Of a stretch of 24,253 bases of DNA, positions 2,644 to 22,108 are shown piece after piece (within the stretch, counting starts at the first letter, position 1; each line of letters starts with the position of its first letter). A program made the position numbers and the translations under genes. Below the pieces are notes generated by a model. That model searched no databases. It was given only the letters and a program-made list of their open reading frames with translations, and was not told where the DNA came from. Source of the DNA: an uncultured archaeon (GTDB lineage Archaea; Hadarchaeota; Hadarchaeia; Hadarchaeales; WYZ-LMO6); NCBI GenBank assembly GCA_938074535.1, contig CALJER010000040.1, positions 1 to 24,253 on the forward strand. Reading direction: 5' to 3'.

Positions 2644-2737
2644 TCTTTCACCTCCGATAGTTCCTGTGCCCAAAAGAGTATTTGAAAATTCTCCCGAAAC
2701 GGTCAAGTTAAACCCTGAAAGGAGGAAAATGGTGCCT

Positions 2738-2753
2738 TCTTTTCGAGAAAAGA
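2738..2753. promoter_or_regulatory. Palindrome TCTTTTC-GA-GAAAAGA in a divergent promoter region, candidate operator
   Basis: Perfect 7-bp arms at the centre of the AT-rich 2644-2836 intergenic region between divergent genes, one of which is a wHTH regulator. Confidence 0.4.
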
Positions 2754-2836
2754 CCCATTTTAAAACTTCTAACCGTTCAAAATCCTCTTTTCCTTCTTTC
2801 CTCAAAATTTTTAAGTTCTCCCTTCCCCCTTCTACG

Positions 2837-3259
2837 ATGACGCTGAGGGAAATGCTGGGCCTCATCCTGCTCACCCTCTTGCTCCAGCTCACCATAGCCA
2901 CCGTCCTCGTCCTCCTCACCCCGGGGGAATCCCTGGAGGTTTCCTCCCTCCTGCTGGCCGTGGGCACCATGGTGGCCGTGGCAGGCTCCATGGCCACCGT
3001 GCTGGCTTTTCTCTTCAGAAAATACGCTAGGGAGAGAACCATGAAGGTGGCCATGATGGGGCTGAGCGAGGACGAGAGAAAGGTTTTTGAAGAAATCCTC
3101 AGGTGCAGGGAGATAAGGCAGGATGACCTGAGGAGGAGGATGGATCTCTCCAAAGCCAAGCTGAGCGCGCTGGTGAACAACCTGGAGAGGAAGGGCATGA
3201 TCCTCAAGCTGAGATACCACAGGACCAACCTCCTTAGGCCCACCAAGGAGTTTTCCTGA
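2837..3259 (+). CDS. Membrane-anchored winged-helix transcriptional regulator (COG2512-like)
   Basis: ATG 2837. Two hydrophobic helices, then LSEDERKV...IRQDDLRRRMDLSKAKLSALVNNLERKGMI...RTN, a typical wHTH. Confidence 0.8.
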   Translation: MTLREMLGLILLTLLLQLTIATVLVLLTPGESLEVSSLLLAVGTMVAVAGSMATVLAFLFRKYARERTMKVAMMGLSEDERKVFEEILRCREIRQDDLRRRMDLSKAKLSALVNNLERKGMILKLRYHRTNLLRPTKEFS

Positions 3260-3858
3260 TGTCCGAGCCACACCTGAGGATAAAGGAGGAAACGCTGGAG
3301 AGGCTGAGAAAGCACTTCGACAGGGAAATGGAGGTGAGGGAAAGGCTGCTCCATCTCTCAAGGGAGGTGGTGAGGCTCTCCGCCAGGTCCATCTTCGCCC
3401 TCCACAGGGGGGATGAAAAACGGGCGGAGGAGCTGATGGGAAGGGCCAAGAAGATCTTGGGGGAGATGGTCGGCCTGTGCGGGGAGAACCCCTCCCTGCA
3501 GGTCTCGGGAACGGTGAGAAACGCCCAGCAGGAGTATGGGGAGGCCTTTCTCGTGAGAACCCTCTTGAAGGAGAGAAGGCTGCCCGAGCCGGAGGAGGTG
3601 GGGATACCCTACGAGCCCTACCTCATGGGGCTGGCCGATGCCCCGGGTGAGCTGAGGAGGGCGGTCCTGGATCACCTCCGGAAGGGGGAGATCAGGCCTG
3701 CCGAGGAGCTCTTTTCCCTTATGGAGAGAATTTACGAGCTCCTTGCGGAGTTCGACTATCCCGATGCGGTCCTTCCCGGGATGAAGAGGAAGCAGGACGT
3801 GGTGAGGGGGCTCGTCGAGAGGACCAGGGGGGAGCTCACTCTCTCGCTGGGAAGATAG
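3259..3858 (+). CDS. Translin/TRAX-family RNA-binding protein (COG2178)
   Basis: RERLLHLSREVVRLS, AQQEYGEA, YLMGLADAPGELRR, KRKQDVVR. TGATG overlap with the upstream gene. Confidence 0.88.
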   Translation: MSEPHLRIKEETLERLRKHFDREMEVRERLLHLSREVVRLSARSIFALHRGDEKRAEELMGRAKKILGEMVGLCGENPSLQVSGTVRNAQQEYGEAFLVRTLLKERRLPEPEEVGIPYEPYLMGLADAPGELRRAVLDHLRKGEIRPAEELFSLMERIYELLAEFDYPDAVLPGMKRKQDVVRGLVERTRGELTLSLGR

Positions 3859-3919
3859 TTAAAAAAGTGCTTTGGCATGGATTAAAAAGCAAGAGGGAAA
3901 AATCGGGAAGCTCTCGGCT

Positions 3920-4126
3920 TCAGGTCACCACGACTACCATTCTCAGATTGTCGGCGGAAACCGTCTTCTTTCCCTCGGCCTTGGCGGCCTTGATGGCCCC
4001 CTTCGCCACTTCCAGAAGGATCTTGTTCACGGCGTCGGCTACGTCGCCGGAAACACGGTCGGCGCCCGCGTCCTTGAAGAGTCGGATGATGGTAGCCTTG
4101 GGCAGCTTGGTCTTGGCATCTCCCAT
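3920..4126 (-). CDS. Archaeal histone-fold protein (variant)
   Basis: ATG 4126 with GGAGGTGA at 4131-4138. LPKATIIRLFKDAGADRVS...GKKTV matches the HMf-like fold. Confidence 0.88.
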   Translation of the reverse strand: MGDAKTKLPKATIIRLFKDAGADRVSGDVADAVNKILLEVAKGAIKAAKAEGKKTVSADNLRMVVVVT

Positions 4127-4166
4127 TTCCTCACCTCCTTCCTTTTTTTTGACCAAAAATACCCCG

Positions 4167-4174
4167 TTTATAAA
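4167..4174 (-). promoter_or_regulatory. TATA box (TTTATAAA) upstream of the histone gene
   Basis: Consensus archaeal TATA about 40 bp upstream of ATG 4126, leaving room for an SD-containing leader. Confidence 0.55.
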
Positions 4175-4175
4175 C

Positions 4176-5027
4176 TTAAAAATCCTCCGCCTCTTGCCCC
4201 TTTTCCAGTTTTTCCGCTTCCTCCGCCGGCATTTCGTAGCTGAACTCCCTGGTGGGGAACTTCCCCTCCTTCACCTCCCTGAGAAACTCCGAGACCGCCC
4301 TTCTCATCTCCTCCCCCAAGTTCGCGTACCTCTTCACGAACTTGGGCACACGATCCGAGAGCCCCAGCATGTCGTGGAGGACCAGCACCTGCCCGTCGCA
4401 GTAGGGCCCAGCCCCTATCCCTATGGTCGGTATCTTCAGGTTCTCGGTGACGAGCTTGGCCACCTGCCAGGGTATTCCCTCGAGCACCAGGCTGAAGACC
4501 CCCAGCCTCTCCAGCTCCTTGGCCTCCCGCAGGAGGGATTTGGCTGCCTCGGCCGTTTTGGCCCTCACCCTGTACCCTCCGAACTGGTGGATCCACTGGG
4601 GGGTAAGGCCCAAGTGCCCCATCACCGGGATGCCCGCGTCCAGCATGGCTTTGATCCTCCCCGCGACAGAGGCTCCTCCCTCCACCTTCACGGCCTCCGC
4701 CCCCGCTTTGATGAACCTCCCCGCGTTGAGGACCCCTTCCGAATCGCTGGGCTGGTAGGAGAGGAAAGGCATGTCGCCCACCACCAGGGCCCTCTTCGCC
4801 CCCCTGGCCACCGCCCTGGTATGGTGCAACATCTCCTCCATGGTGACGGGAAGGGTGCTCGAGTATCCAAGCAAGACATTCCCCACCGAATCCCCCACCA
4901 GGATGATTTCCACGCCTGCCTCGTCCAGGAGACGGGCGGAGGGGTAGTCGTAGGCTGTAAGCATGCAAATCTTCTCTCCCCTGGCCTTCATCTCGGCCAG
5001 GGTGGTGGTGGTGATTTTGTTTTCCAC
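4176..5027 (-). CDS. panB: 3-methyl-2-oxobutanoate hydroxymethyltransferase
   Basis: MLTAYD, ILVGDS, VVGDMPF, AVKVEGG, VMGHLGLTPQ, TIGIGAG, DGQVLVLHDMLG. Confidence 0.96.
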   Translation of the reverse strand: MENKITTTTLAEMKARGEKICMLTAYDYPSARLLDEAGVEIILVGDSVGNVLLGYSSTLPVTMEEMLHHTRAVARGAKRALVVGDMPFLSYQPSDSEGVLNAGRFIKAGAEAVKVEGGASVAGRIKAMLDAGIPVMGHLGLTPQWIHQFGGYRVRAKTAEAAKSLLREAKELERLGVFSLVLEGIPWQVAKLVTENLKIPTIGIGAGPYCDGQVLVLHDMLGLSDRVPKFVKRYANLGEEMRRAVSEFLREVKEGKFPTREFSYEMPAEEAEKLEKGQEAEDF

Positions 5028-5045
5028 TACACCCCCTTTTCCGCC

Positions 5046-5825
5046 TCACTTAAATAGGTCCTCCCCCTTCTCCGAGAGTTCCACCAGCCGCCGGCACATC
5101 AGCCTGAGACTCTCCCTCAGATTCCTCCCGTTGTCGAAGCCTTCCACCTTCTTCCTGAGCTCCTCCCTCGGCAGGCCCTTCATCCTCCTGCACTCCTCCA
5201 CCATCAGGGGGAGGGCGCGTGCCACGTTGTCCACCACCGTGATGGTGGCAGCCCTGGCGGTCCTGGACAGGGGATTGAGGTCCACCGCCACCACCCTCTT
5301 CCCCAGGGCGCGGAGGGCTTCGGTCCTGTCACCGTCCTCCAGCGGCACCAGAACCACATCGGCGGAGAAAATCCCCTTTCTGTCCACCCTTCTCCTGTCG
5401 CTCTGAACCTCCGGTATCCTCACGGCATCCTCCTCCTTCACCCCCAGCACCTCCCTCCCTCCGTGCTTCTTCAGGTGCTCGGCTATCAGAGCCTCCCTTC
5501 CCGGAAGACGGTGAAAGAGGTTTACCTCTATCTTGGCCCCCGTGACCTCAGAGAGTTCGACCACGGCTTCCGGAACCAGAGCGGCGGTGTTTCCGTTCAC
5601 GGAAATCACCGGGTGAGAGGCAAGCAGGAGGGCCGCGGCCGCGGCTTCTATGGCTTCCCTGGCGAACTCCGTGGTCCTCTCCCCCAAGAGGTAGTCGAAG
5701 GCCTCCCCCCTTCCGTGGGCCGCAAGCCCTTCTGGGACCACCATCCCGGCTCTCATTCCCTCCGCGAGCCTCTTCCGAATCCGGAGGGACTCGGCCCGGG
5801 GATGGTTGGGAGAAATTTCGTCCAT
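5046..5825 (-). CDS. pps: Archaeal 4-phosphopantoate-beta-alanine ligase (phosphopantothenate synthetase, COG1701)
   Basis: HPRAESL, AHGRGEAFDYLLGE, ISVNGN, VPLEDGDR, VDLNPLSRT. Start taken as ATG 5825. Confidence 0.93.
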   Translation of the reverse strand: MDEISPNHPRAESLRIRKRLAEGMRAGMVVPEGLAAHGRGEAFDYLLGERTTEFAREAIEAAAAALLLASHPVISVNGNTAALVPEAVVELSEVTGAKIEVNLFHRLPGREALIAEHLKKHGGREVLGVKEEDAVRIPEVQSDRRRVDRKGIFSADVVLVPLEDGDRTEALRALGKRVVAVDLNPLSRTARAATITVVDNVARALPLMVEECRRMKGLPREELRKKVEGFDNGRNLRESLRLMCRRLVELSEKGEDLFK

Positions 5826-9298: not shown

Positions 9299-10027
9299 TT
9301 GGGAAGCTTCGCCTCAAGGCTGCGGGAGAAGGCGGAAAGGGCGGACTCGAGGATAATCCTGGCTTTTGATCCTGCGGGGGAATACCGCGAGGTGGATAGG
9401 GCCAGGGAACTGCTCTCCCGACTCTCGGACAAGGTGGCCGGAATAAAACTTGGTCTCCCCTCCCTCCTCGCCTACGGTCCGGGGGGAGTGAGGAGGCTCA
9501 TGGAGGGAATAGAGGGGCCTTTCATCTGCGACCTGAAGATGGCCGACATAGGGTACGTGAACAGGCTGGTGGCGGGGGAGGTTTTCGGGCTGGGGTTCGA
9601 GGCGCTCATCGCCCACGCCTTCATCGGGATCAGGGAGGGGCTGGGAGAGGTGGTGGAGCTGGCGAGGGAAAGGGGGAAGGGGGTGCTGGCGGTGTGCGCG
9701 ATGAGCCACAGGGGGGCGGAGGAGTACCTGAACAGGCACTACTTGGAGCTGGCGGAGGCCTCCCTCTCCGCCGGTGCGGACGGTCTCGTCCTCCCCGCCA
9801 CCTTCCCGGAGCTCCTGAAGGAGGCCAGGAGAAGGCACCCCGAGGCCCTCATCCTCTCCCCCGGCGTGGGAGTGCAGGGCTCACCCTTCGGCTCCGCCCT
9901 CAGGGCTGGAGCCGACTTCGAGATAGTGGGAAGGGCCCTGGTCTTCTCTCCCTCACCCAGGGAGAGGGCGGAGGAGATAAGAAGGGAGATGGGAGGATGG
10001 AAAGGAGAACGCTCGCCCAGGCGCTGA
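9299..10027 (+). CDS. pyrF: Orotidine 5'-phosphate decarboxylase
   Basis: IILAFD, GIKLG, CDLKMADIG, SPGVGVQG, IVGRA. The TTG start is uncertain. Confidence 0.92.
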   Translation: MGSFASRLREKAERADSRIILAFDPAGEYREVDRARELLSRLSDKVAGIKLGLPSLLAYGPGGVRRLMEGIEGPFICDLKMADIGYVNRLVAGEVFGLGFEALIAHAFIGIREGLGEVVELARERGKGVLAVCAMSHRGAEEYLNRHYLELAEASLSAGADGLVLPATFPELLKEARRRHPEALILSPGVGVQGSPFGSALRAGADFEIVGRALVFSPSPRERAEEIRREMGGWKGERSPRR

Positions 10028-10605
10028 TGGACTGCGGATGCGTCAGGGTGGGTCGCTACAAGCTGAGCTCCGGAGGGTTCAGCCCCTACTACATAGACCT
10101 GCGCATGGTCCCCTCCTTCCCCCAGCTCTTCAGGAGGGTGGTGAGGGCCTACCTGGTCCTTCTCGAGAGGGAGGAGGTGGAGTTCGAGAGGGTGCTGGGC
10201 GTACCCACCGCAGGCATACCCCTTGGGGTGATGTTGGCCCACGAGCTGGGCAAGCCCTTCCTCTACCTCCGCACGGAGAGCAAGGAGCACGGAACGGAGC
10301 GTCTGCTGGAGGGGGAGCTGGGAAAGGGGGAGAGGGTTTTGCTGGTGGACGATGTGGCCACCACGGGGGGAAGCCTGAGGAGGGCCGCGGGAGTGGTGAG
10401 GGGAGAGGGTGGGAGGGTGGAGGCGGCCGCGGTGCTGGTGGACCGGGAACAGGGGGCCAGGGAGCTCCTGGAGAAGGAAGGGGTGAGGCTCTTCTCCGTG
10501 ATGACTGCCAGGGAACTCCTCCAAGAGCTTTATACCTGCGGGAGGATTACGGAACAGAGCTACAGGGAGATCGTGGAGTACATGGAGGGAAGGACGCATG
10601 TTTAA
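9997..10605 (+). CDS. pyrE: Orotate phosphoribosyltransferase
   Basis: ATG 9997 after [34 protein letters not shown] (PRPP loop), VDREQG. Confidence 0.94.
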
Positions 10606-11503
10606 GGGAAGAGATGTGCTCTCCATTTTGGACTTCTCCACCTCCGACCTGGAGCGGCTCTTCAGGAAGGCCTCCACCATCAGGCCCGGGAACGTGCTGA
10701 AGGGGAAGATCCTGGCCACGGCTTTCTTCGAGCCCAGCACCCGCACGAGGCTGAGCTTCGAGACCGCCATCCTGAAGCTGGGGGGCAGCGTGATAGGCGT
10801 GGGTGGAGAGGAGGCCACTTCTCTGGCCAAGGGAGAAAACCTGGCGGACACTGTTAGGATGCTGGACGCCTACGCGGACGTGATCGTGATAAGGCACCCG
10901 CTGGAGGGTGCGGCCAAGCTGGCGGCAGAGGTGGCGGAGGTCCCCGTGATCAACGGTGGCGACGGGAAGCAGCACCACCCCACCCAGGCCATGGTGGACC
11001 TCTACACCATAAGGAAGGAGGTGGGGAGGATAGAGGGCCTGAGGGTGGCTGCAGTGGGCGACCTCAGGTACGGCAGGGCGGCCACTTCCTTCCTCTACGG
11101 GATATGCAAGTTCGGGGTGGAGAAGCTCTTCCTGGTTTCACCCTCCCCCCTCAGGCCCAGGGAGGAGGTTCTGGAGTTCCTGAAGGCCTCCGGGGTGGAG
11201 TACGAGCTCACCTCCGACCTGGAGAAAGTGATGGGGGAGGTGGAGGTGCTGTACATCACCAGAATCCAGAAGGAAAGGTTCCCCGACCCCTCGGAGTTCG
11301 AGAAGGTGAGGGGGAGCTACAGGCTCACGCCCGAACTGGTGGAGAAAATGAAAGAGGGGGCCATCATTCTGCACCCCCTCCCCAAGGTGGAGGAGATAGA
11401 CCTGAGGGTGGACGAGAGCAGGCATGCCCGCTACTTCCAGCAGGCCACCTACGCCGTTCCCGTGAGGATGGCCCTGCTTTCGCTCCTCCTGGGGGGAAGG
11501 TGA
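10598..11503 (+). CDS. pyrB: Aspartate carbamoyltransferase catalytic subunit
   Basis: [31 protein letters not shown]. Confidence 0.96.
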
Positions 11504-11979
11504 TGCCCGGTAACTCTCAGGAGCTGGTGGTCAGGAAGATAGAGAGGGGAACGGTGATAGATCACATCCCCGTAGGTCAGGCGCTGAACGTGATAAAGAT
11601 CCTGGGGGTGGGGGGGGAGAAGCACACGGTGGCCGTGGTGATGAACGTGGCAAGCAAGAAGTACGGGAGAAAGGACATTGTGAAGGTGGAGGGGAAGGAA
11701 CTCTCCACGGTGGAGGTGAACCGGATAGCCCTCGTGGCTCCCGAGGCCACCATCAACGTGATCCAGGACTACAAGGTGGTGAGAAAAAACAGGGTGAAGC
11801 TCCCTGAACGCATTCAGGGTATAGTGAGGTGCACCAACCCCAGCTGTATCACCAACAAGCCCAGGGAGCCCGTAACCCCTACCTTCAGGGTTCTCTCACG
11901 CTCACCCCTCCTCCTCCTGTGCGAGTACTGCGGGAGCAGGATTTCACAGGAGGATGTGGTAAAACAGTACGCGGGGTAG
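11503..11979 (+). CDS. pyrI: Aspartate carbamoyltransferase regulatory subunit
   Basis: ATG 11503 (TGATG overlap). GTVIDHI, KDIVKVE, CTNPSCIT and CEYC zinc site. Confidence 0.95.
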   Translation: MPGNSQELVVRKIERGTVIDHIPVGQALNVIKILGVGGEKHTVAVVMNVASKKYGRKDIVKVEGKELSTVEVNRIALVAPEATINVIQDYKVVRKNRVKLPERIQGIVRCTNPSCITNKPREPVTPTFRVLSRSPLLLLCEYCGSRISQEDVVKQYAG

Positions 11980-11982
11980 AGC

Positions 11983-12801
11983 TTGAGGTTCGAGGAGCTG
12001 GGGATGTATCCCGCCAGGGTGGAAAAGGCGGTGCGCGAGAGCCCTGCGGTGGTTTCCCTCCACCTCCGCTCTCCCCTCCCAAGGGAGCCCTCGCCCGGAC
12101 AGTTCGTCATGGTGTGGCTGCCTGGTAAGGAGGAAGTACCCATGAGCGTCTCCGGGTGGGACGGGGCGAGGCTCAGGATCTCAGTGGCCAAGATGGGTGA
12201 GACCACCTCCGAGCTTCAGAGGGTGAAGAAGGGGGAGTACCTAGGGGTGAAGGGCCCCCTGGGCAGGGGTTTTGAGCTGGGGAGGGGCCCGTACCTGCTG
12301 GTGGGCGGGGGCACGGGAATGGCCCCCCTGATTTTCGCCTGCCGGAGGCTAAGGGAGAGGGGGGAGAGGGTGAAGGTGCTGGTGGGGGCCAGAACCAGCT
12401 CGGAGCTCCTCTTCGTCACGGAGGCCAGGAGGACGGGGGCGGAGGTGGAGGTGACCACGGAGGACGGCTCCAGCGGGGAGGGTGGGATGGTAACGGACCT
12501 GCTCGAGCGGGAGCTCCCAAAAAGGCCGTGGAAGGTCCTTGCATGCGGTCCTGAAGAGATGCTGGTGAGGGTGGTGGAGGAGTGCGTGAAGAGGGGGAGG
12601 AAGGTTCAGGTCTCGCTGGAGAGGTACATGAGATGCGGCCTTGGCGTGTGCGGTTCGTGCGTGCTTGACCCCGTGGGATGGAGGGTGTGTACGGAGGGAC
12701 CGGTGTTCGAGGGAAGGCTCCTGCTGCGCACCGACTTCGGGAAGTTCGTAAGGGACCCCACCGGACGCAGGCTCCCCCTTCCCCCCGGACGGCGAGGCTA
12801 G
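11983..12801 (+). CDS. pyrK: Dihydroorotate dehydrogenase electron transfer subunit
   Basis: PGQFVMVW, GPLGRGF, GGGTGMAP, ACGPEEM, MRCGLGVCGSC...VCTEGPVF ([2Fe-2S] site). Confidence 0.93.
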   Translation: MRFEELGMYPARVEKAVRESPAVVSLHLRSPLPREPSPGQFVMVWLPGKEEVPMSVSGWDGARLRISVAKMGETTSELQRVKKGEYLGVKGPLGRGFELGRGPYLLVGGGTGMAPLIFACRRLRERGERVKVLVGARTSSELLFVTEARRTGAEVEVTTEDGSSGEGGMVTDLLERELPKRPWKVLACGPEEMLVRVVEECVKRGRKVQVSLERYMRCGLGVCGSCVLDPVGWRVCTEGPVFEGRLLLRTDFGKFVRDPTGRRLPLPPGRRG

Positions 12802-12857
12802 GGCTCCCCCCTTTCTCCCTCTCCGGGGGAAGTGGAGTTCCCTCTGCCAGAGCTTCA

Positions 12858-12880
12858 CCCCCAGGGAGAGACCCTGGGGG
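12858..12880. repeat. Inverted repeat CCCCCAGGG-AGAGA-CCCTGGGGG
   Basis: Perfect 9-bp GC-rich stem with a 5-nt loop, downstream of pyrK. Confidence 0.6.
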
Positions 12881-12956
12881 AGGTGGAGGAGGAGGCCCCC
12901 GGTGGGGGAATGGGAGAAGATCCCCCCCTCCTTCCTGGCGAGGATGCGTGAAAATT

Positions 12957-13736
12957 ATGAGGGTGGCGGTGTGCGTTAAAGTGGTCCCCGACCCCGAGGG
13001 TCCTCCCTCCTCCTTCCTCCTGTCCCCGGAAGGGAGGGTGGTTCCGGTGGGGATTCCCCCCGTCCTCAACCCCTTCGACGAGAACGCCCTAGAGCTAGCC
13101 CTCCGCCTGAAGGACAAACACGGGGAAACCTGGATCACGGTAGTGAGTGCGGGCCAAAGCTTCCCCTCCCCGTGCTCGGAAAAGCGCTGGCGGCGGGGGC
13201 GGACGAGCTGGTGCTCCTGGAGGACGAGGCCTTCGAGGAGCTGGATCCCCCCTCCACGGCCCTCCTCCCCTCCCTCGCCCTGCGGAGGCTGGGGGGGCCT
13301 GGTTCTCACCGGGCGCCAAGCCTCGGACTGGAGCTGGGGACTCACCGGGCTCATGCTGGCCGAGAGGCTTGGCCTCCCCGCCATCAGCCTGGTGTGCGAG
13401 CTGAAGGCAGAGGGCGGAGGGGCCGTGGCAAAGCGCCTTTCCCCCGGGGGTCTGGAGGCGGTGAGGGTTCCCCTCCAGGCCCTTTTTACGGTCACCGGCG
13501 GGGCAGGGGAGCCGAGGGGAATCTCCCTGACGGACCTGAGGGAGGCCATGAAGAAACCAGTGGAGCTCTGGAGGGCGAAGGACCTGGGGGTGGAGGCCTC
13601 CTCCCTCAGGAGGAGAAAGAAGGTGGAGCTGAAGCCCGTGGAGTTCAGGAGGAGGGGAGAGGTGATAGAGGGGAAAACACCGGAGGAAGCGGGAGAAAAG
13701 CTGGCTTCAAAGCTGCTGGAGGAGGGTATTGTTTAG
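12957..13736 (+). pseudogene. etfB: Electron transfer flavoprotein beta subunit with two compensating frameshifts
   Basis: MRVAVCVKVVPD...NPFDENALELALRLK in the main frame; VLGKALAAGADELVLLED...STA in another frame (13172-13297); LVLTGRQASD...LAERLGLP...EPR back in the main frame. Confidence 0.8.
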
Positions 13737-13791
13737 CCCGAGCTCCCGCAAAATCCATATAAACACCAAGGATTAGCTTCAACTGGATTGG

Positions 13792-14022
13792 ATGCCCGCT
13801 AAGGAAAACCTCCAGGGTTGGAAGGCAGTGTTCAACCTGTGCTACGGAGTCGTCGTGGTCTTCGTCTTCGCCATTCTCTTGGGTGCGCTGGGCGAGATAG
13901 CCTACAGCTGGGGAAACATAGTGGACAAGGTGGGTCAGACCGGAGCAGCCATTTTGGGTGGCATGACGGCCATAGCCTTGGCCATCATCCTGGCATCCCT
14001 TCTGAAGTCGATAAAGGAGTGA
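13792..14022 (+). CDS. Small membrane protein (76 aa, 2 TM)
   Basis: Two hydrophobic helices. TATA-like ATATAAA about 30 bp upstream and a T-rich tract right after the stop. Confidence 0.7.
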   Translation: MPAKENLQGWKAVFNLCYGVVVVFVFAILLGALGEIAYSWGNIVDKVGQTGAAILGGMTAIALAIILASLLKSIKE

Positions 14023-14036
14023 ACCTCATCCCAACC

Positions 14037-14052
14037 TTCTTTTTTCCCTTTT
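14037..14052 (+). terminator. T-rich terminator candidate
   Basis: TTCTTTTTTCCCTTTT after the stop at 14022. Confidence 0.4.
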
Positions 14053-14070
14053 CCTAAAGGAAAGGATAGC

Positions 14071-15315
14071 TTGGAGCTCACCGTAAAGGGAAGGTTTTTC
14101 GCTCCGGGAGGCCTGAGGGAGGGAAGCATCAGAATCTCACGTGGGAGAATAGAGGAGGTGGGGGAGGAGGTCGCGCCGGGGGGAGAGGTGCTGGACTTCC
14201 GGGAAGAAGGAAAGGTAATCCTCCCGGGCCTGATCGACATGCACGTGCACCTGAGGGACTTTGAGCTCTCCTACAAAGAGGACTTCAGGACGGGGACCAG
14301 GGCGGCGGCCAGGGGAGGATATACTGTCGTGGTGGACATGCCCAACACCCTCCCCAGGGTCAACAGGATTTCGGTGCTGAGGAAAAGGGAGGAGCTGGGC
14401 AGGAGGAGGGCAGCGGTGGATTTCGGTCTCTACTTCGGGGTGCCGGAGGAAAAGGGGGAACTCCGGAAAGAGGTGGGAAAGCGGTGCCTGGGTATCAAGG
14501 TTTACCTCCCGGAAGAGGGGGAAAAAGAAACGTTGGAGGAAACCCTTCGCTTCGCGAGCAGGGAAAGGCTGCTGGTGATAACCCACGCCGAGGACCCTGC
14601 TTTCTTCAGGGGAAAGGAGAGACCCCCCGAGGCGGAGGTGATGGGGATAAGGAGGATGGCCGAACTCTCCCTCCGGCACCGCTTCAGGCTTCACCTCACC
14701 CACCTCTCCTCTTCCGCAGGGCTCAGGGAGCTGGAGAGATGGAAGAGAAGAGTGCGACTCTCGGCGGACACGTGCCCCCACTACCTCCTCCTCACCCGCC
14801 GAAGGGATCCCCTCTTCAAGGTCTTTCCCCCGCTCCGCACGGAAAGGGACAGAACAGCCCTCCTCTCGGGACTTAGGGAGGGAAAGATAGAGGTAGTGAC
14901 TTCCGATCACGCACCCCACCTGCGAGCGGAGAAGAGGGACCCGGACGGACCGGGGGGTTTTCCCGGGCTGGAGACCGAACTACCCCTCCTTCTTACCCTG
15001 GTCAGAAGAGGTGAGCTCGAACTGGAGGGGGTGGTGAAAGCATGCAGCGAGGTCCCCGCCTCCCTGCTCGGTCTCCCCGCCGGGAGGATAGAGAAGGGAT
15101 ACGTGGGCAACCTCACCGTGGTGGACTTGAAGAAGAGCTTCAAGATAGATCCTCTGGAGTTCGAGAGCAAGGCCAAATACAGCCCCTTCCAGGGAAGGAG
15201 GGTGGTGGGTAGTCCGGTCTGCACCATCGTGAGGGGAAGGCCGGTGTTTTTAGACGGGGAAGTGGTGGAGGGTTTGGGGGGAATGAATGTCAAGGCTTAC
15301 GGTGAAGCTGGGTAA
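14071..15315 (+). CDS. pyrC: Dihydroorotase
   Basis: PGLIDMHVHLRD, DMPNT, HAED, TCPHYL, PPLR, SDHAPH, SKAKYSPF. Confidence 0.93.
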   Translation: MELTVKGRFFAPGGLREGSIRISRGRIEEVGEEVAPGGEVLDFREEGKVILPGLIDMHVHLRDFELSYKEDFRTGTRAAARGGYTVVVDMPNTLPRVNRISVLRKREELGRRRAAVDFGLYFGVPEEKGELRKEVGKRCLGIKVYLPEEGEKETLEETLRFASRERLLVITHAEDPAFFRGKERPPEAEVMGIRRMAELSLRHRFRLHLTHLSSSAGLRELERWKRRVRLSADTCPHYLLLTRRRDPLFKVFPPLRTERDRTALLSGLREGKIEVVTSDHAPHLRAEKRDPDGPGGFPGLETELPLLLTLVRRGELELEGVVKACSEVPASLLGLPAGRIEKGYVGNLTVVDLKKSFKIDPLEFESKAKYSPFQGRRVVGSPVCTIVRGRPVFLDGEVVEGLGGMNVKAYGEAG

Positions 15316-16192
15316 ACTGCGCCTGTCCAATCCCACCATCCTCGCCTCAGGCCTTCTTTCCACGGGATCCCTCCTCTGCAGGGCCCTCAGGGAAGGGGCG
15401 GGAGGGGTGGTGACGAAGAGCCTTACCCTAGAGAGAAGGGAGGGGTACAGCACTCCCGTGGTGGTGGGGGTGAAGGACGGACTGGTGAACGCCGTGGGAC
15501 TGACCAACCCCGGAGGTGAGGAGTACCTGAGGGAGGAACTGCCTCTGGCCAAAAAAGGTGGTGGTCCCGTGATCGTGAGCGTGGCTGGGGGAAAGGGAGA
15601 AGAGTTTGCGGAGGTTGCCTCCAAGGCCGAGGAGGCCGGAGCGGACGCTGTGGAGCTCAACCTCTCCTGCCCGCACGTCAGGGGCCACGGCTTGGAGATA
15701 GGCAGGGACCCGAAGCTCGTCCGGGAGGTGGTGAGGAGGACCAAAGAGGTTCTCTCCATCCCCCTCTTTGTGAAGCTGGGCCTCTCGGATCGAATCGTGG
15801 TCTCCGCCCTTTCCGCCGAACGGGAGGGTGCGGACGGAGTGGTGGCCATCAACACCCTGCCCGCCATGGTGGTGGACGTGTATGCTAGGAGAGCCATTCT
15901 CTCAAACGTGACGGGGGGTCTTTCCGGTCCGGCCATCCGTCCCGTTGCCCTGCGCTGCGTGTACGAGCTCTACCAGAACCTCTCTGTGCCCGTGATAGGA
16001 TGCGGAGGGGTGGAGGACTGGGAGAGTGCGGCAGAGTTCATTTTGGCAGGGGCCAGAGCGGTGCAGGTGGGGTCGGCAGTGGCCACCAGGGGATTGAGGG
16101 TCTTCTCCGAAATCTGCAAGGGGCTCTCGAATTATTTAAAAAGGGAGGGAATCCAAAACGTAGATAATTTGGTGGGGAGGCTGGAAGGATGA
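15287..16192 (+). CDS. pyrD: Dihydroorotate dehydrogenase catalytic subunit (family 1B)
   Basis: [43 protein letters not shown]. Confidence 0.95.
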
Positions 16193-17799
16193 AGTACGTC
16201 ATGGTAACGGGAGGGGTGATGAGCGGGCTGGGAAAGGGACTCACCACGGCCAGCCTGGGAAAGCTCCTGCAGGCCAGGGGGCTGAAGGTCACGGCGATCA
16301 AAATAGACCCCTACCTCAACATGGACGCGGGAACCATGAATCCCTTCGAACACGGTGAAATTTTCGTCACGGAGGATGGGGGCGAAATAGACCTAGACAT
16401 GGGGCACTACGAGAGGTTCCTTGACATCAACCTCACGAAGGACCACAACATCACCACCGGGCAAGTGTACTACGAGGTGATCTCCAAGGAAAGAAGGGGG
16501 GAGTACTTGGGTCGCACCGTTCAAATCATTCCCCACGTGGTGGACGAGATAAAGAGGAGGATAAGAGGGGCTGCCCTGAAGAGTGGGGCCGATATCTGCA
16601 TGGTGGAGATAGGGGGAACGGTGGGAGACATGGAGAGCATGCCCTTCCTAGAGGCGGCGAGGCAGATGAGGCTGGAGGAAGGACCCACCAACACCCTTTT
16701 CATCCACGTCACGCTGGTTCCCTCCTCTGGACCCGTGGGGGAGCAAAAAACCAAGCCCACCCAGCACAGCGTAAAGGAACTCAGACAGCTGGGCATCTCT
16801 CCTGACATCATCGTCTGCCGCTCAGATACCCCCCTCACCACTGAGGCCAGACGCAAGATTTCTCTCTTCTGCAACGTTTGGGAGAACGAGGTCATCAGCG
16901 CAGTGGATGTGGAGAACATATACGAACTCCCCCTGGTGCTGGAGCGTGAGAACCTCAGTTCGCTGGTCCTCCAGAAACTGGGTCTGAGGTCTATGGACAT
17001 AGACCTGGGAGACTGGATAGAGATGGTTTCACGGATGGCAAACGCGAGCAAACATGTGAGGGTAGGGCTCGTGGGGAAGTACATAAGGTTCACCGACACC
17101 TACCTCAGCATCTACGAGGCCCTGAGGCATGCCGCCGCCAAAAACGACGTGAAGCTGGAGGTGAAGTGGATAAGTGCGGAGCGGCTGGAGAGGACGACCG
17201 AGGCCCTTCTGAAGGAACTCTCCGAATGCCATGGAGTGATCATCCCAGGAGGCTTCGGGCCCAGGGGGGCGGAGGGTAAGATCCTCGCCATAAAGTGGGC
17301 GAGGGAAAAGCTGGTGCCTTTCTTGGGGCTGTGCTTCGGCTTCCAGCTAGCGGTGGTGGAGTTCTCCAGGAATGTGGCCGGCTTGGAAGGAGCCAACAGC
17401 ACCGAGATAGACCCTTTCACTCCTCACCCCGTGATCGACCTGCTTCCGGAGCAAAGGGGGTTGAAGGATCTAGGAGGCACTATGAGGCTGGGAGCCCAGG
17501 AAATCGTGATAGAAAAGGGTACGAAGGCCTTCCAAATCTATCAGAGGGAAAGAGTCTACGAAAGGCACCGCCACCGGTACGAGGTGAACCCCGAGTACCT
17601 TCCTCTCCTAACGGGAAAGAACCTCCTTTTCTCCGGGAAGAGTCCGGAAGGCAGGAGGATGGAAATCTTGGAACTCTCCGATCACCCCTTCTTCATAGCC
17701 ACCCAGTTCCACCCCGAGTTCAAATCCCGTCCCACTCGTCCTTCTCCCATTTTCGACGCCTTCATCAAGGCTGCCCTCTGCCAGGCCCTCCGCAGCTGA
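16189..17799 (+). CDS. pyrG: CTP synthase
   Basis: [36 protein letters not shown] (catalytic Cys), [13 protein letters not shown]. Confidence 0.97.
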
Positions 17800-17850
17800 T
17801 CCCACACTTCCCCCTCTACCGCCCTTCAAATCCCTCCTCCTCTAAGCACA

Positions 17851-17990
17851 TACTATATACGATTCTTCTCGATTCCTTCTTCATATTCTCTACAATATAC
17901 GATTAGTTATATAATTACTTAATAGTATACGACTAATTATACAATTATGGGAGGAGTCTTCGAAAAGTATATATTTTTGAATATACAAAA
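17851..17990. repeat. AT-rich region with TATAC(G/A)A direct repeats
   Basis: TATACGA at 17856, 17896, 17926; TATACAA at 17938, 17982. A 22-bp direct repeat 17896-17917 / 17926-17947 is 19/22 identical. Confidence 0.75.
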
Positions 17991-18001
17991 AAATAGATAG
18001 G

Positions 18002-18481
18002 ATGTGGAAATTCCTAGTACAGGAAAAACCCGCCGACATAGTGTTGGTTCTGCGACGAGGTGAAACTTACCCCTCTCTGGTGGCGAAGGAGGTGGGCACC
18101 ACCTTCGCCCACGCCTTCAATGTACTGTCGAGGCTGGAGGAAATGGGCGTGGTGACCTCGGAGGAGAGGGGAAGGATCAGATGGGTAAAGCTCACCGAAA
18201 GGGGGGAGGAGCTGGCCACCCTTCTGGAGAAATTGCGGGGATTGGTGGTGGTAATGGATGCCTACGTGGAGCTGGAAAGGGTGTATTCAAAGGAGGTGAA
18301 GAGCAAGCTCAGGGAGGAGGTGAAAGTGGAAGAGGTGATGAAGAAGCTGGAGGAGCTGCGGGGGAAGGTAAAGGCCCTGGCCGAGAGGGAGGACGAGGTG
18401 GGGAGGAGGGCGAGGAAGTTCCAGGAGAGGGTGGAAGAGGTAGAAAGAGAGGCGAGGGGAATTGTGGTGGGTGAGGGATGA
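18002..18481 (+). CDS. Winged-helix (MarR-like) DNA-binding protein with C-terminal coiled coil
   Basis: TYPSLVAKEVGTTFAHAFNVLSRLEEMGVV...GRIRWVKLTERG, then an E/K/R-rich helical tail. Confidence 0.82.
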   Translation: MWKFLVQEKPADIVLVLRRGETYPSLVAKEVGTTFAHAFNVLSRLEEMGVVTSEERGRIRWVKLTERGEELATLLEKLRGLVVVMDAYVELERVYSKEVKSKLREEVKVEEVMKKLEELRGKVKALAEREDEVGRRARKFQERVEEVEREARGIVVGEG

Positions 18482-18709
18482 GATACTCATGAAGGGTAAC
18501 CTACCGAAGAAACTCCTTCCAGAAAAACGAGGAAGAAGGGCCGATGCACCCGGATGGACTGGGCCAGTTACCTTTCAAAGGGTACTCTGGAGAAGGACGG
18601 AAAAAGGGGCGAGGAAAGGGGAAACCCTTTGAAGACTCCCTCAGATACTCATGAAAGGGGATTAAAAGGAGGAGTTACTCATCATAAAGGAAGAATAACC
18701 CATCAAAGG
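18482..18709. repeat. Array of about 6 degenerate GWWACYCWTSAA(A)GG motifs
   Basis: Copies at 18482, 18567, 18621, 18644, 18674, 18695. AGATACTCATGAA is exact at 18481 and 18643. Confidence 0.6.
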
Positions 18710-18717
18710 TGAAGAAG

Positions 18718-19074
18718 ATGGAGACGGGTGCTGAAAGGCTCCTGGAGCTGGCGTACGGTAACCATCCCAAAAGTGTCCTGCTGAAGCCGGAGGGGAGGAA
18801 GGTGCTAAGGATCCTGAGGGAGGGGGCGAGGGGGATGGAGGAGCTGATGAAGGAACTGGGCCTAGACCCACTCTCGGCGGCCCACCGGAAGCACTTCTAC
18901 CTCCTGCTGAGGCCCCTCAGGGAGAAAGGCATGATTTCCACCAGGAGAGCGGGGGGGAAGACCCTCTATCACCTTAGTTACGACGGGTTTTCCCAGTACC
19001 TCCGGGAACTGCGCAAGGAGGCTGAGTTCTGGCTCAAGGAGGCAGGGGGGGAGGGGAAGGAAAAAGCGCCCTGA
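18718..19074 (+). CDS. Winged-helix domain protein
   Basis: GRKVLRILREG...MEELMKELG...FYLLLRPLREKGMISTRR...LYHLS. Start is ATG 18718 (AGGTGA upstream) or GTG 18709. Confidence 0.75.
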   Translation: METGAERLLELAYGNHPKSVLLKPEGRKVLRILREGARGMEELMKELGLDPLSAAHRKHFYLLLRPLREKGMISTRRAGGKTLYHLSYDGFSQYLRELRKEAEFWLKEAGGEGKEKAP

Positions 19075-19135
19075 GCTTCCGAAAACATTTTACGCTCTGC
19101 CAACGGAGAGAAAAGATCCGGGGAGGTAAGAGCGC

Positions 19136-19339
19136 ATGACCAAGAAAACCGGGCAGAAAGCCCTGAAGGCCAGACAGCTGGCGAGGGAGGCTAAGCTCGC
19201 TAAGTACAAGCGGCTTCTGGCCGAGAGCGGGGAAAACCTCGAACTTCCCAAAGCCAGTCCTGAGGAGGAAAGGAAAAAAGAGGAAGAGCTTCGGAGCATC
19301 TACCAGGAGATCTTGGCGAAAAAAGGGAAGAAGGAATAG
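19136..19339 (+). CDS. Small highly charged hypothetical protein (67 aa)
   Basis: GGGAGGT SD upstream; K/E/R-rich helical sequence. Confidence 0.65.
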   Translation: MTKKTGQKALKARQLAREAKLAKYKRLLAESGENLELPKASPEEERKKEEELRSIYQEILAKKGKKE

Positions 19340-19540
19340 CCCGGTCTTCATCCTCCACCCTTGTCGCTCCTACATTTCTGGAGTGTTTTGCGCGGAGGCG
19401 CGGATAAGTACGAAGGTTGTGGGTCAGGGCCCACTATCAAAGCTTCGCTCGAAAGGAGTTCCCAGTTCGGGCAATTTTCTATCCCGCCAAAGCCTTCAGC
19501 CACCTTGCACAACGGAGGTAAACAAATCGGTGGGAAATAG

Positions 19541-20734
19541 ATGGAAATAATTTTCACGATTCTCTTTATACTGACGGTGGTTTGGGTCGTTGGACTACTT
19601 TTTGAAAAATTCGGCCAACCTCTAATTTTAGGGGAGCTCCTAGCGGGGCTGGTCATCGGACCTCCCGTCTTGGGCATCGTGGGAGAGAGGGGGGTCAAGG
19701 AAGGTCTCATGGGGAATCCCGTCTTTGAATGGACTCCAGCCCTCGACACCCTTGCCAAGCTGGGAATGTTTTTCCTGATGTTCTATGCAGGGTTAATAAC
19801 CGATCCAAAAAAGTTAGGGAAAAGAGTAAAGAGCTTTTTTGGAGTGGGGATAGCGGGTACCTTCGTACCTCTGCTTTTCGGATGGCTCGTCACTTGGTTT
19901 TTTACACACAATTTTTGGACAGCGCTCATCATGGGACTCGCCCTCTCAGGCACCTCTCTCGCCGTCAAGGCGAGAATACTCGACGACTTGGGCATCCTCC
20001 AATCCAAAGTTGGGTACACCATGATGGGCGGAGCGGTGGTAGATAACATTCTCACGTTCATCATCCTCGCCGTGGCCATCCAAGCAATAACGGTGGGGGT
20101 GGTGAGGCCTTTGGATTTGTTGTATACGGTGGCACTAGTAGTGGCCTTCTTCGGAATCGCGCTCTTCATCGGTTACCGGGTGTATCCAATAGTCGGGAAG
20201 TTCTTCGCCCACTCAGGGGCGAGGGGGTTTACTTTTGCACTGATCATGGGTCTCCTCATCGCGGGTGTTGGACAAGCGATGGGGCTGCACTTCATCATCG
20301 GTGCCTACCTGGCGGGCTTGTTCGTGCGAGAGGAGTTCGTTGGTGGAGCATTTCGAGATTTGAGCCAGCGCTTCCAAACTCTTAGCCATGGTTTTCTGGG
20401 ACCCATATTTATCGTAAGCCTGGCCTTTCACGTGAGCTTTGGGGTGTTTGAAACTCACACCTTCTTCTTGATAGCACTCCTCATAGCGGCGATGGCTGGG
20501 AAGGTGATGGGAGCGGCCGGAGGAGCATATCTTACCGGGTTGAAGAAAAGAGAAGCGCTTACCGTTGGCATAGGGATGAACGGGAGGGGGATGGTAGATC
20601 TCATCTTGGCGATGGTCGGTCTTGAAATCGGAACTCTTGCCGATGCTCACGTGTCCCTGCTCGTTTTCACGGCTTTTGTGACCACTCTCGTGACCCCACC
20701 AGCGTTAAAGTACATGCTCCGAAAATCTTCCTAG
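19541..20734 (+). CDS. Cation:proton antiporter (CPA2/KefB-like membrane domain)
   Basis: QPLILGELLAGLVIGP, LMFYAGL, ALSGTSLAV, AVVDNI, IIGAYLAGL, GMNGRG; many TM helices. Confidence 0.9.
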   Translation: MEIIFTILFILTVVWVVGLLFEKFGQPLILGELLAGLVIGPPVLGIVGERGVKEGLMGNPVFEWTPALDTLAKLGMFFLMFYAGLITDPKKLGKRVKSFFGVGIAGTFVPLLFGWLVTWFFTHNFWTALIMGLALSGTSLAVKARILDDLGILQSKVGYTMMGGAVVDNILTFIILAVAIQAITVGVVRPLDLLYTVALVVAFFGIALFIGYRVYPIVGKFFAHSGARGFTFALIMGLLIAGVGQAMGLHFIIGAYLAGLFVREEFVGGAFRDLSQRFQTLSHGFLGPIFIVSLAFHVSFGVFETHTFFLIALLIAAMAGKVMGAAGGAYLTGLKKREALTVGIGMNGRGMVDLILAMVGLEIGTLADAHVSLLVFTAFVTTLVTPPALKYMLRKSS

Positions 20735-20949
20735 CTCGAAAATCTTCCCCTTTAACCCTCCCCTCCGGCTGGCTTTTTAGAGGAGTTTTGTTCTGCGATT
20801 TTGTGGCCTGGAAGGTGAGCGGCTCCCCGTGATAAGCAACAACGCGTTCCCCTCTCACCCAGGTTTCTGGTTCAAAAATGAAACTAATGTCCGCTAAAAA
20901 GTTTATAACTCGCGTGCAAGAAAGTTTAATAACGAAGGTCGAGGAAAAT

Positions 20950-22108
20950 ATGGGGGAAGACTATTAGAAAAAGCGTTGTAATTCTGGTCGCTCTTTTGGC
21001 TCTTGTTCTTTGTTTTACGTTTTTAAACTATGGGGAAAAGACAAGTCAACCCACGAGGCCCTCCTTTCAAGAAAGGCTGGACGACTTCTGGGGAGATTAT
21101 CCTGAGCTCGGTGAAGAGAATGTAGTTTATACCGTCCTTCCAGTAGATCTTGAGTACGTCGGCGAAATCTTTCCTCTGGGACATCTCAGTCCACCCGGGC
21201 ATCCCATCCCTACTCCACACACTTACTGGGAACTGGCTAGGGAAGACCTTGGGGCCCCGGTTTCAGGTTTCTCAAAGCCGGTTAAAGCGCCAGCTGATGG
21301 GGTAATCACCAGGATTGTATTTACATATTGGAGTGGTTTTCCGGATTACACAGTGTACATCAGACACACCAATAATTTCACGACAAGATTTAATCACCTC
21401 TCTGAAATAAGTCAGCAGATACTTGATAAGATTGGCTCACCGCTGAAAGAAGGCTGGGATGGCAACAGGGTATACGTCCCGGTTAAGGCTGGTGACGTGA
21501 TCGGAAAAACCTCTAGAGGCTATGGACAAAGCGCCGCTCTCGACATGGGGGCCTACGCTAGGAACGTGTTTCATTACATCAACCCCGAAAAATACCCCGT
21601 GCCGGAGCAGCAGGCGGTTTCCCCCCTGAGGTATTTTGAGCCCTCTCTCAGAGAAGCGGTTCTTCAAAAGATCAAGAGAACGGCTGAGCCCCGTGACGGC
21701 GAGTTCGATTTTGATGTAAGGGGAACGCTGGCGGGAAACTGGTTCTTAGAAGGAAAAGACGGATACAGTGAGGAGGGCGGAGCTGCCTATTATCTCTCTT
21801 TTGCTTACGATGCTTACGACCCGCGGTATCTGAGGGTAAGTTTAGGCTTAACTTTGGGCGGTTATTTGGCCAGGGTAAAAGGAAACGCCCCCGACTTCAA
21901 AAGCGTGGGGGTGAACAGCGGTAGAATCGTTTATAAACTGATCAGCGTTGGTGAAGGAAGCGAATTCTCAGGGGGGCCTATGCCAGACACCGTGGTCTCT
22001 ACCCTCCTGGTGGAGATGATAAACGAGGAGAAGATCAAGGTCGAACTCTTCGAGGGCGAGGTCGATAACCCCTCTTTCACCGCGAATGCAAAGTTTTTCA
22101 CGAGATAA
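20950..22108 (+). CDS. Exported protein with peptidase M23-like domain; natural start displaced by a +1 G-tract frameshift (in-frame fallback TTG 20996)
   Basis: PVKAPADGVI, FNHL, VKAGDVIG are M23-like. ATG 20950 with GAGG upstream is one base out of frame with KTIRKSVVILVALLALVL. Confidence 0.6.

Follow-up and report, generated by a model that had tools for sequence, protein, structure and literature searches.

In Sulfolobus solfataricus, several palindromic boxes lie at regular intervals ahead of the gene for the regulator Ss-LrpB. Ss-LrpB occupies these boxes cooperatively, and ∼100 bp of DNA is wrapped around three dimers in a concentration-dependent autoregulatory switch between activation and repression (PMC2995911, in part). 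Judged by analogy, this protein would be the nearest functional precedent for the putative operator described here, which stands in front of the genes p2 and p3 in the three-gene locus p1–p2–p3. The locus occupies positions 17800–19339 of a 24,253-nt contig (the whole contig is called the window) from an uncultured, heat-loving archaeon of the class Hadarchaeia; p1 and p2 encode winged-helix proteins, and p3 encodes a small protein. Ss-LrpB differs from the p2–p3 system in its Lrp/AsnC fold with a RAM domain, in having three boxes and not six, and in its other genomic targets.

Two further systems are known in which a DNA-binding protein occupies sites beside its own gene. AspA, encoded by plasmid pNOB8, recognises a palindromic site in front of the aspA gene and spreads, acting by way of ParB and ParA (PMC5120986, in part). 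The p1 gene has the same combination of an AspA-like winged helix and a palindrome upstream; in contrast with the AspA system, its locus has no downstream parB/parA and the p1 protein has ∼95 extra helical residues, and the likeness to AspA is at the level of generic winged helices. In the ParR/parC system of plasmid R1, iterated sites span the promoter of the binder's operon, once per replicon; ParR has a ribbon-helix-helix fold and depends on the ParM nucleoside triphosphatase (NTPase) from the same operon. The DNA upstream of p2 may be called parC-like, having iterated sites, one cluster per replicon, for the operon's own putative binder, but there is no partner NTPase gene in the p2–p3 locus.

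At the level of the protein fold, the closest comparison is with the ArsR/SmtB regulators (SmtB, CzrA, Rv0081, SqrR, HlyU), which share with p2 and with the head of p1 a helix-helix-helix-turn-helix-wing-helix topology. Like p2 they are small, and they have imperfect palindromic sites over their own promoters. p2 differs from them in falling under the curated cut-offs and in lacking a conserved cysteine, and its system has six phased sites, not one or two; to our knowledge, its LAYGNHPK motif is not known from the ArsR/SmtB family. LmrR, of the PadR/LmrR group, is among the top Foldseek matches of p2 (template modelling score ∼0.55–0.6), and a long C-terminal helix is common to both. PadR operators have the form ATGT-N8-ACAT, unlike the TTAC-N9/10-GTAA dyads found upstream of p2; p2 itself has no Pfam PadR match at E ≤ 0.1, and its likeness to LmrR is one of fold only. 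For the head of p1, the closest solved relative is AF_1382 (PDB 2qvo, 3o3k, 3ov8), a protein of 95 aa with no tail, to which its depositors gave the molecule name ‘Uncharacterized protein’. Sso10a-2 (PDB 4hw0) also matches the p1 head; in Sso10a proteins, a winged helix is combined with a coiled coil.

Hadarchaeia are uncultured archaea with small genomes (∼1.2 Mb), in which regulation is so far unstudied. Searches of one literature library found no description of p1, p2, p3 or the conserved DNA upstream of p2, and none of the papers listed was on the protein AF1382 or AF0843; a search combining Hadesarchaea with transcriptional regulators returned nothing on the locus by title or abstract. 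The locus offers a testable protein–DNA system, composed of an apparently unclassified winged-helix family, a presumptive six-site operator and a small protein that is presumably co-transcribed.

The p1–p2–p3 locus

The genome under study (labelled G000) comprises 1,206,154 bp in 53 contigs, with the locus on contig C40. Candidatus Hadarchaeales is the name carried by the closest database relatives of the window's proteins. Three open reading frames (ORFs) in the same orientation lie downstream of a cluster of pyrimidine genes, the last of which are pyrD and pyrG:

18002–18481, + strand: p1, 159 aa; winged helix (residues ∼1–65) and three long C-terminal helices (66–99, 109–127, 132–152)
18718–19074, + strand: p2, 118-aa winged helix of ArsR/SmtB-PadR topology, with an invariant LAYGNHPK after helix 1
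19136–19339, + strand: p3, 67 aa; conserved basic N-terminal 60 residues

No curated Pfam or NCBIfam cut-off is reached by any of the three proteins. The start of p2 is placed, on the sequence, at the probable ATG 18718 (118 aa) instead of the listed GTG 18709, because the database gene call also has 118 aa and because GGTGA at 18708–18712 is conserved among orthologues where a ribosome-binding site would be expected.

The initial annotation of the window had described three co-oriented genes, each winged-helix gene behind its own array of repeats and the third gene coding for a small, charged protein, at a junction with an AT-richer block. This layout holds. The G+C content falls from 0.56–0.63 before 17500 to 0.46 at 17501–18000, and is 0.48–0.53 at 19501–21500, which confirms the junction. 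Structure models and Foldseek bear out both the winged helix with a helical, coiled-coil-like tail proposed for p1 and the DNA-binding-type winged helix proposed for p2. The ‘repeat arrays’ stand in part: there is a motif cluster before p1 and another before p2, but these are clusters of short motifs and not tandem arrays, and Tandem Repeats Finder reports just two weak 2-copy rows at the locus. In the window as a whole, a tRNA scan found nothing and Rfam gave no match at the gathering threshold.

A conserved six-dyad block upstream of p2

The gap between p1 and p2 is filled by a non-coding block that aligns across the order (20 loci from several families) and carries six imperfect dyads of the form TTACYC-N5/6-GRGTAA, A to F. 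A repeat search before p2 returned a 19-mer in three copies, at 18481, 18643 and 18673, and alignment with orthologous loci gave the six dyads. The features of the block are as follows, with scores from a position weight matrix (PWM) for the dyad:

18481–18714, + strand: conserved non-coding block, 234 nt long here (range over 20 loci, 234–240 nt), containing all six dyads and the putative p2 promoter
18481–18501, no strand: dyad A, overlapping the last base of the p1 stop codon; 17.2 bits, or 15.5 bits with a PWM lacking family f1
18566–18587, no strand: dyad B, the most strongly conserved of the six (column identity 0.87)
18622–18642, no strand: dyad C, degenerate in this genome, assigned from alignment columns only and under the PWM threshold
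18643–18663, no strand: dyad D, abutting the TATA box; 13.1 bits
18660–18669, + strand: TATA-box-like element of p2–p3, GATTAAAAGG here and TTTAAATA in most relatives
18673–18694, no strand: dyad E, over the presumed transcription start; 14.5 bits
18694–18714, no strand: dyad F, in the presumed 5′ leader; 16.2 bits, or 16.1 bits with a PWM lacking family f1

The spacing of the dyads is rigid. Measured centre to centre in all 20 loci, it is 84–86 bp for A–B, 56–58 bp for B–C, 19–20 bp for C–D, 30–31 bp for D–E and 21 bp for E–F, so that it deviates by at most 1 bp among the loci. Column identity is 0.68–0.87 in the sites versus 0.50–0.59 in the variable spacers; in dyads A and C, the left halves drift and the right halves are kept. 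Such order-wide constancy of spacing with drifting spacers amounts to a natural experiment on the constraint that acts on operator architecture. The TTAAA core of the TATA-like element is invariant in 20 of 20 loci, and 18660–18669 is the putative p2–p3 promoter. The right half of dyad F coincides with the Shine-Dalgarno-like GGTGA (18708–18712). The block is not coding, as in most loci each of the six frames is interrupted by stops.

The block travels with p2–p3

Among 65 genomes of the class, 25 of them of high quality, p1 is present in 47 (22 high-quality) and p2 in 38 (19 high-quality), with one match each. Both genes occur in 35 genomes and are adjacent in 33 of these. The arrangement is tandem in 26 of the 35, with gaps of 243–382 nt, and divergent in seven, with gaps of 331–500 nt; in the remaining two, the pair is split across two contig ends in one and lies on different contigs in the other. 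The genes are thus strongly syntenic in relatives, and the initial concern that they might not be is allayed. Twelve genomes have p1 without p2, including G042, which is 90% complete, and three have p2 without p1 (two incomplete genomes and one fragment). Units of either kind, p1 or p2–p3, are found only in Hadarchaeia.

These rearrangements and losses reveal with which gene the block is associated. In four loci where p1 is divergent from p2, the whole block is upstream of p2. It is absent from five p1 loci that have no p2 within 1.5 kb, and in a sixth such locus the contig stops partway through the block. BLAST with one block as query matched 19 of the 65 genomes, with a single match each, situated between p1 and p2 or immediately before p2, except in G044, which has a block fragment after p1 and no p2 found. 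The sensitivity of this search is limited, as it missed families f1 and f5, where alignment shows the block. The block travels with p2–p3 and not with p1, and is usable as a simple marker for the module.

The dyads are also concentrated at this one place. In G000, the PWM scores 50 places above 12 bits genome-wide, versus 24–49 in five shuffles, and five distinct sites lie in this block; this first matrix was a half-site PWM used as a dyad, and it included the window's own sites. When the PWM is rebuilt from 13 loci of other families, with f1 left out, three distinct sites remain in the block, which is still the densest cluster. On a 1.03-Mb contig of the genome G024, scanned with a PWM without its own genus, the block holds three of 53 sites and is again the densest cluster, the next best having two. 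A second dyad cluster was found in neither of the two genomes (G000 and the G024 contig). No regulon for the block dyads is visible, with a modest margin.

Between this genome and family f3, the identity of p2 is 63–73% (51% in L020), that of p1 is 33–41% and that of p3 is 45–59%; CTP synthase has 66–70% over the same distance. By this measure of sequence identity, p2 appears to be constrained like CTP synthase.

p1 and its upstream motif cluster

The model of p1 (predicted local distance difference test, pLDDT, 91.5) shows a winged helix followed by three long helices. Its head has a profile match to AF_1382 of Archaeoglobus (PDB 2qvo) with E 8e-15 over residues 3–90. Foldseek matches are to SqrR, AF1382, AspA and Sso10a-2, all with E of ∼2e-4 to 1e-3; for AspA, the winged helix gives a Foldseek E of 5e-4 with 28–30% identity over ∼80 residues, and a profile E of 0.0087. 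A comparison of p1 with p2 by hhalign gives a probability of 0.2%, and the two are therefore not recognisable paralogues.

Upstream of p1 there is a second set of motifs, unlike the dyads of the block:

17856–17990, no strand: p1 control region, with a motif cluster and the inverted repeat 17904–17917/17934–17947
17968–17978, + strand: TATA-box-like run TATATATTTTT, 34 nt before the p1 ATG, read from the sequence

ATACGA[CT]T occurs three times before p1 (17857, 17897, 17927), TATAC five times (17856, 17896, 17926, 17938, 17982) and GTATA twice (17925, 17967). The seven copies of TATAC/GTATA within 17856–17986, in a 160-nt window, compare with 245 in the 1,206,154-bp genome, where the next densest 160-nt window has three. 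When the local region, with 73% A+T, was shuffled, one of 2000 shuffles (0.0005) reached seven. One or more copies are present in 27 of 30 orthologous p1 upstream regions, usually one to four. The motif cluster before p1 is real in this genome, and its size is particular to this genome. The TATA-like run is flanked by the inverted repeat and by a GTATAT-N8-ATATAC pair. Given the usual archaeal distance from TATA box to transcription start, its position 34 nt before the ATG implies that the p1 mRNA would be leaderless or nearly so.

The pyrimidine cluster upstream raises the thought that p1 might be a pyrimidine regulator. This candidate was rejected because in family f3 p1 is not beside pyr genes; there, the genes upstream of p1 are for a class II aminoacyl-tRNA synthetase, a membrane transporter and, in some loci, an aminotransferase. 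In G042 (L083:6113–8170), where p1 occurs without p2–p3, an unassigned 150-aa ORF follows p1, and an AbiEii-type nucleotidyltransferase gene lies further on.

p2 and p3

The p2 model (pLDDT 82.9) has the a1-a2-a3-aR-b1-b2-a5 topology of ArsR/SmtB with a long last helix. Foldseek returns 33 PDB chains at E ≤ 1e-3, among ArsR/SmtB and PadR/LmrR repressors (Rv0081, SmtB, CzrA, HlyU, LmrR). In an alignment of 26 p2 homologues, the LAYGNHPK motif after helix 1 is invariant. Of the residue types that serve metal or ligand sensing in ArsR/SmtB proteins (a3N cysteines, or His/Asp/Glu of an a5 site), H16, E101 and E103 are invariant in p2, with H59 nearly so; there is no invariant Cys. The family is tiny: a profile search against 1.84 billion representatives gives 46 at E ≤ 1e-3, 15 at E ≤ 1e-10 and four at E ≤ 1e-30, and its distant members keep a YGxHP motif. 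An Atlas feature search points to the AF_0843-family cluster (Pfam PF27297) with a score of 0.90, which is a lead only and unconfirmed. We take p2 to represent an unclassified winged-helix family.

Among the more distant proteins of this type, P0072, P0078, P0081 and P0087 have tandem-duplicated p2-type domains and an acidic composition; P0072 also has an N-terminal VRR-NUC-like nuclease segment, a weak match (E 7e-4) below the cut-off. Another distant relative, with YGTHPK, is conserved in Parvarchaeota/ARMAN-type genomes (27 loci, L049–L075, 67–80% identical within the group, with one of the 27 records identical to the query). In the six of these loci that were read, the p2 relative overlaps the start of a 174-aa gene that by eye resembles a PduO-type adenosyltransferase, no p3 follows, and a neighbour looks by eye like a gene for ribosomal protein L10e/uL16. 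No TTAC dyad array was seen upstream of the p2 relative in the Parvarchaeota/ARMAN-type loci.

The p3 gene follows p2 in 22 of 24 p2-holding loci, the exceptions being one contig end and L032. In families other than that of this genome, p3 adds a variable acidic tail of 30–70 residues. A profile search with p3 gives 159 proteins; among the 120 best listed, all organism names are Hadarchaea or Hadarchaeum, and none of the entries states a function. An Atlas search had a best score of 0.75 and gave no lead. At L032:2760–3300 (genome G007), a G+C-rich stretch of ∼500 nt with hairpin-like segments stands in place of p3; it has no p3 match, no recognised ORF in the three forward frames and no Rfam match at E ≤ 0.01.

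Two proposed, linked transcription units

On balance, the locus is predicted to consist of two transcription units, linked and separable, each self-regulating (self-repressing) and kept side by side. In the first unit, p1 would form a dimer with a coiled-coil-like tail and repress its own, probably leaderless, transcript; self-repression is proposed because the p1 TATA box is embedded in TATAC/GTATA-type sites. The second unit would be a p2–p3 operon behind a rigid 238-nt control block. Here p2, expected to be a dimer, would bind all six dyads (TTACYC-N5/6-GRGTAA). With ∼3 helical turns from D to E and ∼2 from E to F, these three dyads would place p2 over the upstream margin of the TATA box, over the start of transcription and over the ribosome-binding site, and so turn p2–p3 off; transcript starts are predicted near 18000 and near 18692. 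Dyads A, B and C (85, 57 and 19 bp apart) may serve cooperative assembly, probably with bending or looping of the DNA, which would account for a spacing fixed within 1 bp while the spacer drifts. p3 is small, has a basic helix and in most families ends in an acidic tail; it could be the output under regulation, or it could modulate p2. That the two units stay next to each other points to cross-talk between them in the manner of a two-step switch. A two-step regulatory switch was among the functions first proposed for the locus, and it draws support from the site cluster embedded in the promoter of each gene and from the persistence of adjacency through inversion.

Several points weigh against this model of two self-repressing units. 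(i) The pairing of the dyads with p2 comes from co-occurrence only, and p1, p3 or another factor could bind them. (ii) p2 falls under the curated ArsR cut-offs, with 13.1 versus 22 bits for Pfam HTH_5 and 22.9 versus 55 bits for NCBIfam HTH_metalloreg. (iii) The p1 motif cluster is weak in other genomes, at zero to four copies; on the 1.03-Mb contig of G024, the region upstream of p1 has two TATAC/GTATA and is not the densest window. (iv) The margin by which the block is the densest dyad cluster is small (three versus two) when the PWM is built without relatives of the genome scanned. (v) Six sites over 234 bp with no other genomic target exceed the needs of simple autorepression. Autorepression explains neither these six sites at fixed spacing, without another target, nor a p2 apparently constrained like CTP synthase, and this leaves some limited room for a structural role of the protein–DNA complex on the chromosome.

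Alternative explanations

The least unlikely of the alternatives, though still improbable, is a cascade in which p1 would bind the six-dyad block as master regulator of p2–p3, and p2 would act elsewhere or on p1. It gains from the adjacency of p1 and p2 in 33 of 35 genomes in both tandem and divergent arrangements, and from the position of the block, which in tandem loci begins at the p1 stop codon. It is opposed by the five p1 loci without p2, from which the block is missing, and by the motifs themselves, as the TATAC/GTATA of the p1 promoter are unlike the TTAC dyads of the block and persist in p1-only genomes in three to four copies (L028, L029, L031, L033).

A chromosome-organising or centromere-like platform is an unlikely explanation. 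Here p2, with p3 as a possible adaptor, would sit on the six phased dyads, and autoregulation would be a by-product, as in ParR/parC or AspA. The single site cluster per genome without a regulon, the invariance of spacing within 1 bp across the order and a p2 as conserved as CTP synthase would all suit such a platform, as would the resemblance of the p1 winged helix to the pNOB8 centromere binder AspA. Against it, the resemblance to AspA is no stronger than the one to ordinary ArsR repressors. Neither this locus nor its counterparts in 10 relatives have a neighbouring gene for ParA, ParB, SegA, a ParM-type protein or any other NTPase, as the initial annotation had remarked of ATPases in the window, and the genes after p1 are p2, p3 and a Na+/H+ exchanger gene, with no overlapping parB/parA; its suggestion of a partition or organising locus is thus left unsupported. 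Moreover, p2–p3 are missing from the 12 p1-keeping genomes, including the 90% complete G042, and are therefore dispensable. In one form of this idea, itself improbable, the block would be a single-copy assembly site on which p2, and perhaps p3 by means of its basic helix and acidic tail, build a fixed nucleoprotein particle, a landmark of the Hadarchaeia chromosome without a dedicated adjacent NTPase, with p1, as a relative of AspA and Sso10a, for a second component; if so, the particle would serve anchoring, organisation or segregation.

It is very improbable that the block acts as a cis-acting RNA, either a long leader or a small RNA, and not as protein-binding DNA. Its constant length of 234–240 nt and several hairpin-capable palindromes would be expected of an RNA, and the block of the window folds with a z of ∼−3.4 on both strands against mononucleotide shuffles. 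However, no consensus structure emerges on either strand: the consensus fold energies are −2.6 (+ strand) and −5.8 kcal/mol (− strand), and covariation is nearly absent. The drift of the left halves of dyads A and C, the right halves being retained, breaks the hairpins, the block includes a conserved TATA-like element 49 nt ahead of the start of p2, and Rfam has no match to it, L002 and L032 included, even at E ≤ 0.01.

The position of the module relative to replication genes bears on the last alternative. This genome has two Orc1/Cdc6 genes, on contigs C43 and C23, and none on C40. In G024, the 1.03-Mb contig carries orc1/cdc6 genes at 751 and 803 kb and has the module at 143–145 kb. The minimum of its cumulative GC skew, at ∼780 kb, falls between that pair of genes; over the module the curve is flat, with no extremum. 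The module is ∼640 kb from the skew minimum and ∼610–660 kb from the orc1/cdc6 genes, or about half of the 1.3-Mb genome, in this one unclosed genome, and it may lie near the terminus in G024. No clear origin recognition box repeats occur within 1.5 kb of the orc1 genes of G000, where there are only purine-rich coding repeats; canonical origins are therefore unmapped in this genome. The initial proposal of an Orc1-independent origin with p1 or p2 as initiator, after the manner of WhiP/oriC3, is hardly credible: winged-helix genes do adjoin dyad arrays, and the stretch before p1 is 73% A+T over 160 nt, but Orc1/Cdc6 and the skew minimum are elsewhere, the A–B and B–C spacers of the block offer no A+T-rich unwinding stretch in this genome, and 12 p1-holding genomes lack p2–p3 with the array. 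Neither an origin signal nor a segregation signal was seen at the module, and the locus is removed from the candidate non-canonical archaeal origins. The model of two linked, self-repressing units is the one retained.

Genomic surroundings

The locus has a stable chromosomal position, with an MptE-like gene a little downstream of p3 here and in five of 10 relatives examined; it is part of the core chromosome and not a mobile element. PHROGs gave matches near the 0.01 limit only, and there is therefore no sign of a virus.

Upstream, the window holds a long co-oriented pyrimidine biosynthesis cluster (9299–17799), with genes for OMP decarboxylase, aspartate carbamoyltransferase, the DHOD-B Fe-S subunit and an amidohydrolase (probably dihydroorotase), followed by pyrD and pyrG. 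With the query from this genome, pyrG was matched in just 32 of the 65 class genomes and in one of the 14 genomes of genus g8. Downstream, the stretch 19541–22108 between p3 and the MptE-like gene (G+C 0.48–0.53) encodes a Na+/H+ exchanger and a protein of 370 aa that in part matches an M23 peptidase. The genes at this spot differ in relatives (GPR1/FUN34/YaaH, DUF998), and it is therefore a variable insertion point. Near the start of the window, two long ORFs of 574 and 396 aa (1630–3354, − strand, and 3867–5057, + strand), with no Pfam match at E ≤ 1e-6, flank a Translin-family gene.

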